IMG/VR virus record: IMGVR_UViG_3300026549_000029 | Coordinates: 64,001 to 128,000 of that record | Direction: 5' to 3' (one strand) | Source of the DNA: a virus | Taxonomy: Duplodnaviria > Caudoviricetes | Length of the DNA: 64,000 nucleotides | In this document: in pieces, positions 4,784-16,554 of the stretch | How the letters are laid out: each line of letters begins with the position of its first letter | How positions within the stretch are numbered: the stretch's first letter is position 1 | Notes under the pieces: model-generated | What the model saw: only the letters and a program-made list of their open reading frames with translations | What the model was told of the DNA's origin: nothing | Databases searched by the model: none | Made by a program: the position numbers and the translations under genes

Positions 4784-5140
4784 ATGTTAGGAAATCCAAA
4801 TACTCAATTAGATGAAGAGATTATTTTATTTGGCAGTACTAATATGAGTAAAGATGATGTATTATCTATATTATAAGAAGAATGTTCTGAATTAATTCAT
4901 GCTATATCAAAATATAATAGAGCTAATGGAAAAGGAATACCTACTTGGTGTTCTAAAGAAGAAGCATATTATAATTTAATTCAAGAATTTACTGATGTTA
5001 TGATTGATTTAAATCAATTAGCAAGAATGATGAATTGGAATGAAGAAACTTTTAAACCTTATAAAATGAAAGCTCATATTGATATTATTAAAAGATATGA
5101 AGAAAGTATACTTGGAGAAAATCGTTGGAGGAAATCATAA
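4784..5140 (+). pseudogene. MazG-like nucleotide pyrophosphatase interrupted by an in-frame TAA
   Basis: GAGGAG RBS and ATG4784; reads ...VLSIL*EECSELIHAISK...NLIQEFTDVMI...RKS*. The stop at 4874-4876 lies just before the EExxE motif. Not in the ORF track. Confidence 0.7.
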
Positions 5141-5146
5141 ATAAAA

Positions 5147-6706
5147 ATGCCAAAAGATAAATCTAAAATAGCACAACATGGCTTGTCAGAAGAACAGATT
5201 AAAGTAATTGATAATTATAAAAATGAAATTAAACATATAGAAGGTACAATCAATGCAGTAAGAGCTAAGATAGGTATGTATCTTGGAGCTATGCATGATC
5301 AAGGATGGCTAAATGGATTTAGAGAGATATTTCAAAACTCTATTGATCAGGTAATTAATCCAGATTCTCCTTGTAATTTTGTATCAGTATTATATGATGA
5401 AAGAACATATAAATTTGCTGTACAAGATAATGGTATGGGAATTCCTTTTGATATGATTATTCAGATATATACAGAAGGACATACTGGACGAAATCTTACT
5501 AAAAGTAAAAAAGGAGATTATACTGCAGGAACTAATGGTATAGGTGCTAAAGTAACAAATGCAGTATCAGCATATTTTGATGTAATGTCTTATAGATATG
5601 ATGGTACATGCATGCATGTTAGATTTGAAAAAGGTAAATTAAAGAAACAAGAATTATTACCTAATAAGGAATTATTTCAAGGTACTAGAGTAGAATGTGA
5701 ACCTGATCATACTGTATTAGGAGAAACTCCATTAGATCCAGGCAGGGTGTATTTATTAGTAAGAGATACTTTATCTTTATTACCTATTGGAACTAAGATA
5801 GATTATACCAGTATTAATAAAAAAGGTAAAGTTTATCATGAATTAATGGTAAATGAAGATGGTATCATGACTAATATTATTGGTAAAAGTTCAGCTATGC
5901 TGATTGCACCAATTAATATTTATAATGATACTGGAGAAATGAAACTTGAAATGTCTTTTACATTTGATCAGCAGGATTTGGGTGGGGAAGATATTACAGC
6001 TTATGCTAATATGTGTCCTACAAGTACAGAAGCTAATAGAAATACTCATGTTGGTGGAGTATTAGATGGAATTTGTACTTGGTTCTGCAATTATATGAAT
6101 AAGACATTTCTAACAGATAAAGAAAAAGTTAAAATTAGAATAATGCCAAGTGATGTTAAAACTGGATTAAAAGTGATGATATCAGCTTGGGCATTAGAGC
6201 CTATTTTTACAGGACAAGCTAAAGAAATATTTTCTAATATAGAATATAAAGCTTATGCTAAATCTGTAGTAATGAATGCTTTAGATGAATGGGCTAAAGC
6301 TAAACCTCAAGATTTATTAAAATGCTGTAAATTTATTAAAGATATAGCAAATGTTAGAATAAAAACTGATTCTGAAAAAATTAAAGTTACAGCTAAATAT
6401 GAAACTTCTGCAACTAGTGGATTACCTGCTAAATATTTAAAACCAACTTCTAAAGATTATAAAAATACAGAATTGTTTATAGTAGAAGGAGATTCAGCAT
6501 TAGAGACTGCTAGAAATGCAAGAGATGTTAAAACCCAAGGAGTATTTCCTATTAGAGGTAAAATATTAAATGTATTTCAAGCAACTCCACAAAAAATTGC
6601 AGCTAATGTAGAAATAGCTTCTATTATACAGATCTTAGGAGCTGGATATGGTAAGAATTTTGACATAAATAAGTTAAAAGTAGGTAGAATTCTGTTATTA
6701 TCGGAT
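5147..6706 (+). CDS. gyrB: DNA gyrase/type IIA topoisomerase subunit B, exon 1
   Basis: GHKL motifs EIFQNSID, DNGMGIP, GTNGIG; TOPRIM motifs VEGDSA and PIRGKILN; ends ...RILLLSD at the intron. Confidence 0.93.
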
Positions 6707-7059
6707 GAATAAAAATGCGTCCGTAGATGCTTTTCCCAAAACCATGGGGGTTAGATATAATCTAGCTAACGGTAAGAGCTGAATAAGACTAATACATGAA
6801 GCCAAAAGAGATATGTATGTACTAACAAAAGACGAAGCAGCTCTCTAAGAAAGCCTAAGGTCCAGAAATGGATAGCTGGTAATACCGTGTGAAATTTTTA
6901 TTAATTAAATTAATAAGAAAAACATGTAACGACTATTCCTATATAGGAAGTACAGATATTATTGGTACATATCTGGAAAGAGCATCCTAGTTATTTTTAT
7001 AACTAGTAAAATATAGTCTAAGCCCTAATTAAATATCGAGAAATCGAGGGTACTAACTA
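6707..7059 (+). ncRNA. Group I intron (no ORF, 353 nt) in gyrB
   Basis: P1 CGGAU/GUCCG with U6706.G6719 wobble; P3 GAUGCUUUUCC/GGAAAGAGCAUC; P7 GACUA (6931-35)/UAGUC (7014-18). Removal restores the TOPRIM motif SD|ADSDGAHI in frame. Confidence 0.92.
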
Positions 7060-7896
7060 GCAGATTCAGATGGCGCACATATTTGCGACTTACTTTTATT
7101 AGTATTTCTTAAAATGTTCCCAGGTTTAGTTGAATCTGGTAAGGTTTATAAAGCTGTACCTCCTCTTTATGGTATTCCTTCTAAGAATAAAATGCAATAT
7201 TTTTCAGAGAGAATAGACTTTGTTAGATATATGCAGAAGGAATATTATAAGAAAAATACTGTTACTGATATTAAAGGTAAAGCTATAGACTCTAGTACAT
7301 TCTCTAGATTACTTATAGAGAATTCTGATTATATTTATGATTTTTCTATGATATCTGAAAGATATAAATTAAATCCTATGCTTCTTGAGATAGTACTTAC
7401 TTCATATATTGCAAAAGAAAGATTTGAAACTCTTAGAAAGAGGATTACATCTGAATTTAGATTTATGGAGAATAAGAATATTGAGAAGAGAGGATCTACT
7501 ATATTTATTAAAGGATTAATAAATGATAGAATAGAGACACTGTTTTATAATGATAGATTTATAAAAGATTGTGAACCTCTAATTGAACCTATAAGAAGAG
7601 CTATGTCTCAGAATCATATGCTATTTAAAGTGAATGGTAAAAAAGTAGGATTATATGAATTAGTATCTACTGCTATGGCATCATTAGGATCTATTAATAG
7701 ATATAAAGGTCTTGGTGAAATGAATGACTGGCAGTTAAGAGATTCTACTATGGATCCAAATACTAGAACTGTAATTCAATATACTATTGAAGATATTAAT
7801 GAAACTATGAAAATTATTAGACAATATGATTCTAATAAGAAAATGATTCTTCAAAAGATAGGTTCTGTAGATAGAGGAGATTTAATTGGATTATAA
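7060..7896 (+). CDS. gyrB: Gyrase subunit B, exon 2 (spliced product 798 aa)
   Basis: ADSDGAHICDLLL...PPLY...RYKGLGEMN; in frame with track ORF 7114. Confidence 0.92.
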   Translation, partial: ADSDGAHICDLLLLVFLKMFPGLVESGKVYKAVPPLYGIPSKNKMQYFSERIDFVRYMQKEYYKKNTVTDIKGKAIDSSTFSRLLIENSDYIYDFSMISERYKLNPMLLEIVLTSYIAKERFETLRKRITSEFRFMENKNIEKRGSTIFIKGLINDRIETLFYNDRFIKDCEPLIEPIRRAMSQNHMLFKVNGKKVGLYELVSTAMASLGSINRYKGLGEMNDWQLRDSTMDPNTRTVIQYTIEDINETMKIIRQYDSNKKMILQKIGSVDRGDLIGL

Positions 7897-12521: not shown

Positions 12522-12551
12522 GATTTTAGAAAGGATTTAACTTGATAAAAT

Positions 12552-13544
12552 ATGGTAAGTAATATAGAAATGATTCTAAAACTAATGGAACAAGATCTAA
12601 ATGAATACCAATTAGCTAAGCTCAAAAATGTTTTAGAAATCATTCTTAAAACTACTAGAAACTCTCTACCAAATGAAGAATTGATAGACAGATTCATACA
12701 AAATAAAAAATTAGTTGGACTTTCTCAATCTTCTATAGTTCATTATACTGGTGAAGCCCGTAGATTAGCAGCTTATTACCCTAATAGAAATCTAACAGAA
12801 CTTACTACAGCAGATATAAAAGATTATTTATCTGAATATGTTGCAGAACGTAATTTACAGGCAAGCACTACTCAAACTATGGTAAGATTTCTATCAGCAT
12901 TTTATGATTTTCTTGTAAATGAAGAGTATATAGAAAGAAATCCTTGCCATAGAATAGAAAAAATTATAGTAGAAAAGAAGATTAAAAAAGCTTTTACAGA
13001 AGAAGATATAGAAGCATTAAGAAATGCTTGTACTACTTCTAGAGATAGAGCTTTTCTAGAATTTCTTTATTCTACAGGCTGTAGAATATCAGAGACATTA
13101 AGCCTAAAAGTACAAGATATTGATTTCTCAGAAGGAGAAATTATTGTGTTTGGTAAAGGTCATAAAGAGAGAATAGTATATTTATCAAATATTTGTATGG
13201 AATGGTTAAAAATATATTTAACTCAGAGAAATGCTCAACCTGAAGAACCATTGTTTAGTCATTTAGATTCTCCTAAAAAGAAATTAACTGTAAGAGCAGC
13301 ACAACTTATTTTAAAAGATTTAGGTCTCAAAAGTGGTGTTGATAATGTACATCCTCATAGATTCAGACGTACTATGGCAACACATGCTATGGATAAAGGT
13401 ATGCCTATTGAACAGATTAAAGAACTTTTAGGTCATTCTAAATTAGATACAACAATGATTTATTGTAATGTGAATGCTGGGAAAGTTAAAGCTAGTTTTA
13501 AAAATATATTTAATGATAATGATCCTTTTAATAATAAAAATTAA
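12552..13544 (+). CDS. Tyrosine recombinase (XerC/D-like)
   Basis: Complete catalytic set: TGCRISE, GKGHKER, HPHRFRR, LGH, TTMIY. Confidence 0.95.
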   Translation: MVSNIEMILKLMEQDLNEYQLAKLKNVLEIILKTTRNSLPNEELIDRFIQNKKLVGLSQSSIVHYTGEARRLAAYYPNRNLTELTTADIKDYLSEYVAERNLQASTTQTMVRFLSAFYDFLVNEEYIERNPCHRIEKIIVEKKIKKAFTEEDIEALRNACTTSRDRAFLEFLYSTGCRISETLSLKVQDIDFSEGEIIVFGKGHKERIVYLSNICMEWLKIYLTQRNAQPEEPLFSHLDSPKKKLTVRAAQLILKDLGLKSGVDNVHPHRFRRTMATHAMDKGMPIEQIKELLGHSKLDTTMIYCNVNAGKVKASFKNIFNDNDPFNNKN

Positions 13545-13583
13545 TTTTAATAACTATATATTGTGAGATTTTGACTTTAACAG

Positions 13584-13672
13584 TTATATAAAGTACTCAT
13601 TTATGGTGCTGAGGTGGGTGCTTTGTATGGTTCAATTACTTGTTTCTTGTCCATACTCATGATTCATTTTTA
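13584..13672 (+). repeat. Imperfect ~90-bp direct repeat, copy 1 (structured RNA candidate)
   Basis: TTATATAAAGTACTCATTTATGGTGCTGAGGTGGGTGCTTTGTATG...TGTCCATAC...ATGATTCATTTTTA, homologous to 16606-16696. Confidence 0.85.
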
Positions 13673-13683
13673 TTTTCTCCAGA

Positions 13684-13707
13684 GCTAGGTTCCATATGGA
13701 ACCTAGC
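13684..13707 (+). terminator. Intrinsic terminator
   Basis: GCTAGGTTCC-atat-GGAACCTAGC followed by a T tract. Confidence 0.75.
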
Positions 13708-13779
13708 ATTTATTTTTAAAAAAATAAAAATAAATATTATAATATTAATATATGGTATTAATATTATTTAAAAGGAGAA

Positions 13780-16554
13780 ATGGAAATGAATACAGAGAAA
13801 AAGAAATTAGAACTTTATGAACATAATCTTGAAGCTTATAATGAACTTATTAATTTTATAAATAATAATAAAAATAATAAGATTTGTATTATACGTCCTA
13901 CTGGAACAGGTAAAGCTTTTATTGAACTTAAATTTATTGAAGAAAATATTGATAAAAAGTTTCTTCATATTACATCTTATACAGAAAATCTTAATCAGTT
14001 TAAAAGATATGTAGATGAATATCTTGATAATCCTAATATTGTATATTCTACATATGCTGGATTAAAAAATATCTGTAATGATTATGAAGATTATTTTGAT
14101 TATATTATAACAGATGAATTTCATCATATTGGAGCTCCTAAATGGACAGCATCTCTTAATAAATTATCCAATCAGAATCCAAATGCAACTATTATAGGAT
14201 TATCTGCTACGGAAAAAAGATATTCTGATATTACTATAAATGGTACACCTAGAGATGTATCAGAAGAGTATTTTAATAATAATATAATAGCAAATTTATC
14301 ATTAAGTGATGCTATTATGAATGGTATATTACCTGTACCAAATTATATTTATGGTATAATTAATATTGTTGAAATACTTAATAATTGTAAAAATGACAAA
14401 AATCTTTATAAAAATGCTAAGAAAAATATCGAAAAAAAGATTAATAATATTAAAAGTGTAATAAATGAAAATATTAAAAGAAAAAATGGAAAATATATAA
14501 TTTTCTGTAGAAATATAGAGCATAAAGAATCTGTAAAGTATGAAGCATTATCCGAATGGTTTATAGATTTTAATGTATCTGTATATGATATTGATTCTAC
14601 TAAATCAGTAAAAAAGAATAGAGAAAATATAGATAATTTTATAAATAATAATGATGATACTCTTAAATTATTATTTAGTGTAAATATGTTAAATGAAGGA
14701 GTTCATATAAAAGGTGTAGATGGTGTAATACTTAGTAGATATACAGAAAGTAATAATGTATATTTTCAGCAGATTGGACGGGCATTATCATCTGATTATA
14801 TAGAATATAATAATCAGAATCCTGTAATAATAGATCTTGTTAATAATATTAAAAATATTGCTAATATTGTAGATTTTTGGATTCCTTTATATAATAATTT
14901 AAAAGAAATTAATAGAATTAGTGAAAAAGAATGTGAATCATTATTTATGCTTAAATTTAATTCTTTAAATAGTAATTTATTAATTGAATTATTTAATTTT
15001 ATTAATAAAATTAAAATAAAGCCTATAGAAGAATGGTTTAAAGAATTAGATAAGTTTTATGAAAAAAATGGTAGGTATCCTAAGACTAATGAAGGAAGTA
15101 TAGGACATTGGCTTAATGACATTAAAGTAAAAGCAAGACAAGGTAAAGCATCAGATTATATTTTATCTGAACTTGAAAAAAGAGGAATTAATTTAGATTT
15201 TAAAATTAAATCTACAAAAGAACGATTTAAAGAATTAGATAAGTTTTATGAAGAAAATGGTAGGTATCCTAAAAAAAGAGATGGAAGTATAGGAGAATGG
15301 TTTATAGATATTAAAGTAAAAGCAAGACAAGGTAAAGCATCAGATTATATTTTATCTGAACTTGAAAAAAGAAATATTAATTTAAATACTATATATGCTA
15401 AAGCTAAATCTATGGAAGAATGGTTTAAAGAATTAGATAAGTTTTATGAAGAAAATGGTAGATATCCTAATACTAAAGATAAAAGTATGGGAAATTGGTT
15501 TAAAGATATTAAAGTAAAAGCAAGACAAGGTAAAGCATCAGATTATATTTTATCTGAACTTGAAAAAAGAGGAATTAATTTTAGTAGTAAGTGTAAATCC
15601 ATAGAAGAATGGTTTAAAGAATTAGATAAGTTTTATGAAGAAGATGGTAGGTATCCTAAAGAAAGAGATGGAAGTATAGGAGAATGGTTTAAAAATATTA
15701 AAGTAAAAGCAAGACAAGGTAAAGCATCAGATTATATTTTATCTGAACTTGAAAAAAGAAATATTAATTTAAATATAATACGTACTAGTATTAGAGGTAG
15801 ATCTATAGAAGAATGGTTTAAAGAATTAGATAAGTTTTATGAAGAAAATGATAGATATCCAAATACTAATGATGGAAGTATAGGAAGTTGGCTTAAAAAG
15901 ATTAAAGTAAAAGCAAGACAAGGTAAAGCATCAGATTATATTTTATCTGAACTTGAAAAAAGAAATATTAGTATAATCTCTTTAATAATAGATGATAAGC
16001 TTATAGAATTAGATAAATTCTATAAAGAAAATGGTAGATATCCTGAATGGAATGAAGGAAAAATAGGACAATGGCTTTTAAGTACTAAAACTAGAATAAA
16101 ACATGGTAAAGCATCAGATTATATTTTATCTGAACTTGAAAAAAGAGGAATAAATACTAATAATAAATATAAATCTGCAGAAGAGCAATTTATAGAATTT
16201 GATAAATTCTATAAAGAAAATTATAGATATCCTAGAGCTAAAGACGGAGAAATAGGAAGGTGGTTTTTAAATACTATTAATAGAGTAAAACAAGGTAAAG
16301 CATCAGATTATGTTTTATCTGAACTTGAAAAAAGAAATATTAGTTTAAATTCTAAAATTAGATCTGCAGAAGAGCGATTTATAGAATTGGATAAGTTTTA
16401 TGAAAAGAATGGTAGATATCCTAAGACTAATGAAGGAGGTATAGGAGGTTGGCTTAGAGATATTAGAGCAGATGTAAGACAAGGTAAAGCATCAGATTAT
16501 ATTTTATCTGAACTTGAAAAAAGAGGAATTAAATCTAATAAAAAAAGAAAATAA
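13780..16554 (+). CDS. SF2 (DExH) helicase with 8 C-terminal helicase-associated (HA)-like repeats
   Basis: PTGTGK, DEFHH, SAT, LNEGVH, QQIGRA, followed by 8 units of ELDKFY..NGRYP....IG.W...ILSELEKR. Confidence 0.9.
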   Translation: MEMNTEKKKLELYEHNLEAYNELINFINNNKNNKICIIRPTGTGKAFIELKFIEENIDKKFLHITSYTENLNQFKRYVDEYLDNPNIVYSTYAGLKNICNDYEDYFDYIITDEFHHIGAPKWTASLNKLSNQNPNATIIGLSATEKRYSDITINGTPRDVSEEYFNNNIIANLSLSDAIMNGILPVPNYIYGIINIVEILNNCKNDKNLYKNAKKNIEKKINNIKSVINENIKRKNGKYIIFCRNIEHKESVKYEALSEWFIDFNVSVYDIDSTKSVKKNRENIDNFINNNDDTLKLLFSVNMLNEGVHIKGVDGVILSRYTESNNVYFQQIGRALSSDYIEYNNQNPVIIDLVNNIKNIANIVDFWIPLYNNLKEINRISEKECESLFMLKFNSLNSNLLIELFNFINKIKIKPIEEWFKELDKFYEKNGRYPKTNEGSIGHWLNDIKVKARQGKASDYILSELEKRGINLDFKIKSTKERFKELDKFYEENGRYPKKRDGSIGEWFIDIKVKARQGKASDYILSELEKRNINLNTIYAKAKSMEEWFKELDKFYEENGRYPNTKDKSMGNWFKDIKVKARQGKASDYILSELEKRGINFSSKCKSIEEWFKELDKFYEEDGRYPKERDGSIGEWFKNIKVKARQGKASDYILSELEKRNINLNIIRTSIRGRSIEEWFKELDKFYEENDRYPNTNDGSIGSWLKKIKVKARQGKASDYILSELEKRNISIISLIIDDKLIELDKFYKENGRYPEWNEGKIGQWLLSTKTRIKHGKASDYILSELEKRGINTNNKYKSAEEQFIEFDKFYKENYRYPRAKDGEIGRWFLNTINRVKQGKASDYVLSELEKRNISLNSKIRSAEERFIELDKFYEKNGRYPKTNEGGIGGWLRDIRADVRQGKASDYILSELEKRGIKSNKKRK
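15025..16530 (+). repeat. Coding tandem array of 8 units of ~180-205 bp
   Basis: A 63-nt block ATTAAAGTAAAAGCAAGACAAGG...GAACTTGAAAAAAGA is identical at 15121, 15310, 15508, 15697 and 15901. Confidence 0.95.

Follow-up and report, generated by a model that had tools for sequence, protein, structure and literature searches.

Excised group IA introns of phages give shortened circles. Raghavan et al. reportedly presented Cbu.L1917 in the 23S rRNA of Coxiella burnetii in 2007 as a group I intron capable of self-splicing and without the terminal guanosine (omega-G), and this intron is said to end in A, to use G for the first step and to splice more slowly in vitro. The preliminary description of the present locus had called such omega-A introns rare, with one known in Coxiella; the Coxiella case stands, however, it is not the sole example, since ND5-717 of hexacoral mitochondria is also a natural omega-A group I intron (PMC8146996, PMC6545197). 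More than 70% of the ND5-717 precursor was found unspliced and intron circles were not found, which the authors tied to the missing G (PMC6545197), and it has been proposed that omega-A prevents hydrolysis and circularisation and thereby protects exon ligation (PMC8146996). In group I circularisation the last intron base acts as the nucleophile, and truncated intron circles have been described (both PMC3679873). The terminal G is regarded as near-universal and built into annotation rules (10.1101/2020.01.27.920355), hence, omega-A introns are mis-mapped or called errors.

The intron described here interrupts the gyrB gene of a phage. The analysed window, a stretch of 64,000 nucleotides, lies within a complete virus record of 287,868 bases with 27.7% GC, which was matched in bovine gut samples. 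Among cultured phages no close relative was found, the best GyrB matches showing about 30% identity. The gyrA gene is situated 3' of gyrB, and genes resembling those of multi-subunit RNA polymerases occur elsewhere in the genome. The gene 5' of gyrB (window 4784-5140, 118 codons) carries a TAA at codon 31 (4874) where strain L061 has CAA (Gln), which may be either a strain-specific change or read through. At positions 12549-16554 a tyrosine-recombinase-like gene precedes a helicase that contains an extended array of near-identical repeats. At the gyrB locus the following features were assigned:

5147 to 6706, plus strand: gyrB exon 1, encoding the ATPase, the transducer and the first part of TOPRIM, from the ATG at 5147 to the end LLSD (Pfam HATPase_c, DNA_gyraseB, Toprim)
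6707 to 7059, plus strand: ORF-less group I intron of 353 nt with an IA-type core including P7.1/P7.2 and A7059 as its most probable last base (omega-A), assigned from the RNA joint, covariation and homologues
7060 to 7896, plus strand: gyrB exon 2, ADSDGAH through the stop codon (Pfam DNA_gyraseB_C; intron-less homologues)
6710 to 7059, plus strand: circular intron RNA of 350 nt, closed between A7059 and U6710 (closure between U7058 and A6709 would give the same sequence)

The span 6701-7065 given earlier thus contained the intron together with flanking bases, the intron proper being 6707-7059. Exon 1 ends in TCG GAT (Ser-Asp, with U6706 as the final base), and its continuation into the intron reads GAA TAA, i.e. 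a stop. At the other end, bases 7050-7062 read GTACTAACTA GCA, with A7059 just 5' of the in-frame GCA GAT TCA GAT GGC (ADSDG). Because intron-less GyrB relatives have TDADSDG or TDGDFDG at the corresponding site, the insertion point directly follows the first Asp in the DxDxD motif of TOPRIM, which agrees with its earlier placement within the DxD motif. When nearby junctions were enumerated, LSDADSDG was restored by just two of them, 6706/7060 (U, last base A) and 6707/7061 (G, G), both of which lead to an identical mRNA, and no U/G pair restored the motif. The earlier claim that an in-frame ADSDG demands an exon 2 beginning at G7060, with the two canonical sites together out of frame, was therefore correct. 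The spliced reading frame encodes 798 amino acids.

A secondary structure comprising P1, P3, P3.1, P3.2, P4, P5 with extensions, P6, P7, P7.1, P7.2 and P8 was drawn by hand and scored on 13 homologues. Its main elements, and the 3' elements beside it, are:

6702 to 6723, plus strand: P1, exon CGGAU (C6702-U6706) with the guide GUCCG (G6719-G6723), the wobble pair U6706.G6719 at the 5' splice site and the extension G6707-C6718
6716 to 6718, plus strand: P10 guide segment UGC, pairing with GCA of exon 2 (7060-7062), 3 pairs here
6726 to 6986, plus strand: P3 (6726-6734/6977-6986) and the enclosed helices P3.1, P3.2, P4 (6769-73/6884-88), P5 with extensions, P6, P7.1 and P7.2
6929 to 7019, plus strand: P7 guanosine-binding helix, 6929-6935 with 7014-7019, canonical, with G6931-C7018 as the guanosine-binding pair
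7020 to 7058, plus strand: P9.0 (A7020-U7058) and, from folding, a P9 hairpin with GAAA cap

Across the 13 homologues 97.5% of the cells were paired, and two-sided changes occurred in 26 pairs compared with a shuffle mean of 10.5 (0 of 500 shuffles as high). Pairing dropped to 33-50% in controls with slid partners; the structure had been drawn from one of the 13 sequences, which gives it an edge over these controls, while the two-sided changes are independent of that. The U.G wobble, correctly located at U6706 by the preliminary description, is kept in 13/13 aligned homologues, and the pair at +1 covaries from G-C to A-U. P10 has 3-4 pairs in every homologue and covaries with the first codon of exon 2. 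In P7, A6929, the bulged C6930 and GACUA up to 6935 face UAGUCU (7014-7019), and the G-C pair of the guanosine site is invariant (22/22 introns), so that the G-binding site is as normal as had been stated; the J6/7-P7 segment is the same in omega-A and in most omega-G introns. Free folding (z -3.6) did not yield the pseudoknot. A search with Rfam gave no group I match at the gathering score or at E values up to 10, which is weak evidence against a group I assignment because the seed of that model contained no sequences from bacteria (10.1101/2020.01.27.920355).

With regard to class, the RNA has the P1 U.G, a pseudoknotted P3-P7 core with P4-P6 and P8, the P7 G-C pair with its bulge, and P10/P9.0. 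It is also excised with exact exon ligation, as seen from the circle and the joint 6706>7060 in contigs, where the joint alone might come from an intron-less strain. The terminal guanosine of canonical introns is replaced by A7059, next to an unmodified P7 site and an exact ligation. Hence, the intron, which functions in the manner of a phage group IA intron, is filed as an omega-A variant and not as a canonical group I intron, from which it departs structurally in the terminal G alone. P7.1 and P7.2 between P7 and the 3' strand of P3, together with IA-type J6/7-P7 and J8/7 motifs, suggest subgroup IA2, a provisional label.

Compared with the systems introduced above, the phage intron shares with ND5-717 the natural omega-A, the interruption of an essential protein gene and exact exon ligation in vivo. 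However, ND5-717 is an obligatory intron with vertical inheritance and with genes in its P8, whereas the phage intron is small and optional and belongs to a family that alternates between G and A. For ND5-717 no circles were found, whereas a circle is the main form in which the phage intron is seen. Cbu.L1917 has an rRNA host and is conserved in one species, while the phage intron sits in a protein gene and has near-identical omega-G sisters as natural controls. With phage group IA introns of the T4 td type it shares the core motifs AACGACUA and AUAUAGUCU, P7.1/P7.2, insertion at a conserved catalytic motif, an optional homing endonuclease in relatives and the formation of shortened circles after excision; it differs from them by the terminal A, the additional P3.1/P3.2, the extended P5 and its gyrB host. 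Bacillus phage G and Enterococcus phage EF1 gave the nearest database matches, which are introns of DNA polymerase III genes and cover only 35-41% of the gyrB intron.

RNA evidence was obtained from assembled contigs of bovine gut metatranscriptomes, i.e. runs X3 (study P3), X5 (study P4) and X17, with X2 as DNA run for comparison, to the exclusion of DNA runs that hold 0.3-0.46 of the sequence words; both RNA studies possibly belong to a single campaign. In contigs, other than in reads, rare forms are lost, and the intron's 5' end, the strand and true abundances are not given. The in-frame joint 6706>7060, which skips 353 nt, was found in RNA contigs of X3 and X5 with more than 230 bases on each side, and was not seen in the DNA run X2. 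An uninterrupted GyrB of 798 amino acids is on record (P0124, ENA, 32-kb contig) that is identical to the spliced product at 796 of 797 positions and may represent either an allele of this phage that lacks the intron or an assembly made from RNA. Because such a near-identical gyrB exists, the exon-joined contig could derive from a strain without the intron that shares the animal. No unspliced contig was listed in X3, although contigs cannot measure splicing efficiency.

The excised intron itself is more informative. In each of X3, X5 and X17 a 380-base contig represents the 350-nt circle, with the back-joint 7058>6709 and its one-base ambiguity; this back-joint was not seen in the DNA run X2. 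The junction reads CUA/UAAA and lacks G7060, and an enumeration of junctions showed that the circle sequence fits only 7059>6710 or 7058>6709 and is incompatible with any end at G7060. If the intron ended in G7060, this G would be part of the circle joint, because the last base is the nucleophile of circularisation. Since an intron-less strain cannot give a circle, the 3' end is defined by it whatever the source of the exon joint. Moreover, the site is the one predicted from re-pairing with the guide in the register exoG-C, G-C, A-U, A.G (exoG being the added guanosine), with a duplex energy of -3.6 kcal/mol compared with +0.6 for cleavage after G6707, and A6709 would face G6719, as U6706 does during splicing. 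This junction without G7060, at a site matching guide re-pairing, is the main argument for omega-A. The circle contigs had depths of 54.4 (X3), 24.2 (X5) and 14.1 (X17), while the exon-joined contig reached 11.5 and 9.4, which we read as an abundant circle and nothing beyond, because contig depth poorly reflects expression. The circle being the deepest contig, the ND5-717 pattern of reduced splicing without circles was not found, as far as contigs, which cannot measure efficiency, can tell. The circle-junction check proposed earlier is hereby answered: it favours the U6706.G6719 site with omega-A7059 over a junction shifted by one base.

The family of introns at the same site was represented by 23 distinct complete introns, several of them near-copies. 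Just before exon 2, 16 of them have G and 7 have A, and none has C or U. At +1, G is found in all omega-A introns and in 11/15 omega-G introns, a link that is not significant (Fisher p 0.28). In the other four omega-G members the first base is A and faces a U of the guide, which indicates that the +1 pair extends P1 in the usual way. P9.0 is formed in 5/6 omega-A introns (A-U, or G.U in L022/L032) and in 8/15 omega-G introns. In a tree calculated without P9 and the terminal region, the omega-A groups lie among omega-G relatives; at least three changes between G and A are forced by well-supported branches, and a single omega-A clade is rejected (p-AU 1.8e-5). Gains and reversions of A are indistinguishable because the tree is unrooted. 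The omega-A intron L002 and the omega-G intron L040 are 97.5% identical, and no core column tracks or compensates omega-A, the lone hit in the gapped P1 loop being an alignment effect. A gene for a GIY-YIG endonuclease occupies the P6 region of the same-site introns L047, L053 and L057 and, judged by its length, of L018. In the window intron this place is taken by an AT-rich hairpin, and no GIY-YIG gene was found in this phage genome. Omega-A introns may still be mobile, because the two omega-A members L018 and L053 have a length of about 1.1 kb and the latter has the GIY-YIG gene.

Further introns were located in the genome and its clade:

Genome positions 6280-6580, 6597-6986, 119187-119552, 119563-119877, 155518-155881 and 262606-262946: six other group I introns without ORF, located in genes that resemble those of RNA and DNA polymerases

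All six have U at the 5' site and a terminal G and their removal restores open frames, hence omega-A is not a genome-wide rule. Two pairs among them are parted by exons of merely 16 and 10 bases. In related phages the same intron family occupies three further gyrB positions (PGM/Y, EGD/S and DxDxD/G; L041, L027, L021, L026), all apparently G-ended. Introns with a common P4-P5 core but a different 5' region and 3' end occur in a polA-like gene at NAS/ (L011, L012, L030, L033, L038). In the literature searched, the coverage of which was incomplete, no precedent for a gyrB intron was found, phages included. The statement of the preliminary description that a gyrase gene is an unusual intron host nevertheless needs correcting, since gyrB is a hot spot for introns in the clade, with four or more sites.

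The terminal A would be only apparent if guanosine attacked after G6707, within a G-C pair, and G7060 served as omega-G, an alternative raised from the beginning. The mRNA would be the same, the exon joint is ambiguous by one base, and all omega-A members have a G at +1 paired to a guide C. However, the circle lacks G7060, P9.0 would pair in 0/6 omega-A introns in this register, and the base before the exon G should vary freely, yet no base other than A or G occurs there in 23 introns. Furthermore, U.G is invariant, and the four omega-G relatives with A at +1 cannot use such a register, which we consider quite improbable. The terminal A might also result from a G lost during assembly, or the intron might be dead, with the gene expressed in two pieces or via a ribosomal hop like that of T4 gene 60. 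The stop at the end of exon 1 fits a dead intron, and T4-like topoisomerases are split near this gyrB site. Against it stand the excised circle and a promoter scan without excess over shuffles, i.e. without support for separate expression of exon 2, and the sole matching hop (GAU 6704 to GAU 7063) would remove Ala-Asp from DxDxD. With regard to a dropped G, reads with ACTAGGCAGAT had been named beforehand as the finding that would speak for it; no inserted base at 7059-7060 was present in contigs of any run. The DNA contig of X2, possibly the source sample, covers 6835-7723 with 0 differences, the independent strain L061 (96% identical) differs two bases upstream and retains AAACTA/GCAGAT, the RNA circle contigs from other studies are without G at the joint, and A occurs in three separate lineages. 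An assembly error as source of the terminal A is thereby ruled out, and the whole account of a dead or mis-assembled intron is close to negligible.

It is also conceivable that omega-A splicing is real and that the circle does not arise by the ribozyme via A7059, either because a protein ligase joined U7058 to A6709 after trimming or because of an artefact of reverse transcription. In that case splicing might proceed slowly or depend on a helper protein, which has been reported for other omega-A introns. The one-base ambiguity of the back-joint, the library selection recorded as RT-PCR, and the poor splicing of ND5-717 without circles (PMC6545197) are in line with this idea. However, one exact joint recurs in three runs at the place where guide re-pairing predicts it, end-to-end template switching would retain the 5' bases, and the U7058 register pairs less well, and we give this explanation a very small chance. 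Hence, with the joint 6706>7060, the circle without G7060 and the family comparison, the terminal-A gyrB intron of the preliminary description is borne out, and the locus very probably holds a functional group I intron that combines the canonical 5' splice site U6706.G6719 with a terminal adenosine, A7059.

How such an intron would work can be outlined. Given the chemistry of group I introns and an intact G6931-C7018 pair, free guanosine would attack after U6706 at the U.G wobble. A7059 might then occupy the guanosine site in the omega position, held there by P9.0 (A7020-U7058) and P10 (UGC/GCA), and the 3'-OH of U6706 would attack the A7059/G7060 bond, giving the observed GAU-GCA joint and the 798-amino-acid GyrB with an intact DxDxD. 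For cyclisation, exoG-G6707-A6708-A6709 would re-pair with the guide (G-C, G-C, A-U) and place A6709 opposite G6719, so that the 3'-OH of A7059 could attack the 6709/6710 bond, which would release the 350-nt circle that is seen. Omega-A would accordingly be a tolerated point change that recurs in the family without compensation in the core, and the choice of the 3' site would come from P9.0 and P10.

The omega-A trait itself has been published before; new is the in vivo evidence of abundant circularisation by an omega-A intron. For most omega-A candidates, DNA or spliced mRNA cannot separate a terminal A from a shifted junction, and here the deciding evidence is the circle junction. The result goes against the proposal that omega-A blocks circularisation (PMC8146996), at least for shortened circles; the proposal chiefly concerns full-length circles, but the shortened circle likewise needs the terminal base as nucleophile. 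In annotation, GyrB is miscalled as two genes across the whole clade of gut jumbo phages. Taken together, it is reasonably probable that an unmodified guanosine site accepts a terminal A in two roles, the leaving group of exon ligation and the nucleophile of circularisation, and does so well enough in vivo for the circle to be the main form of the intron, and that the terminal base has switched repeatedly between G and A without compensation. A 353-nt, ORF-less ribozyme with G and A sisters would be a handy model for the second splicing step, with a possible use for circular RNA. If the reading holds true, the 97.5% identical sister ribozymes would be a natural means of measuring the contribution of omega-G.
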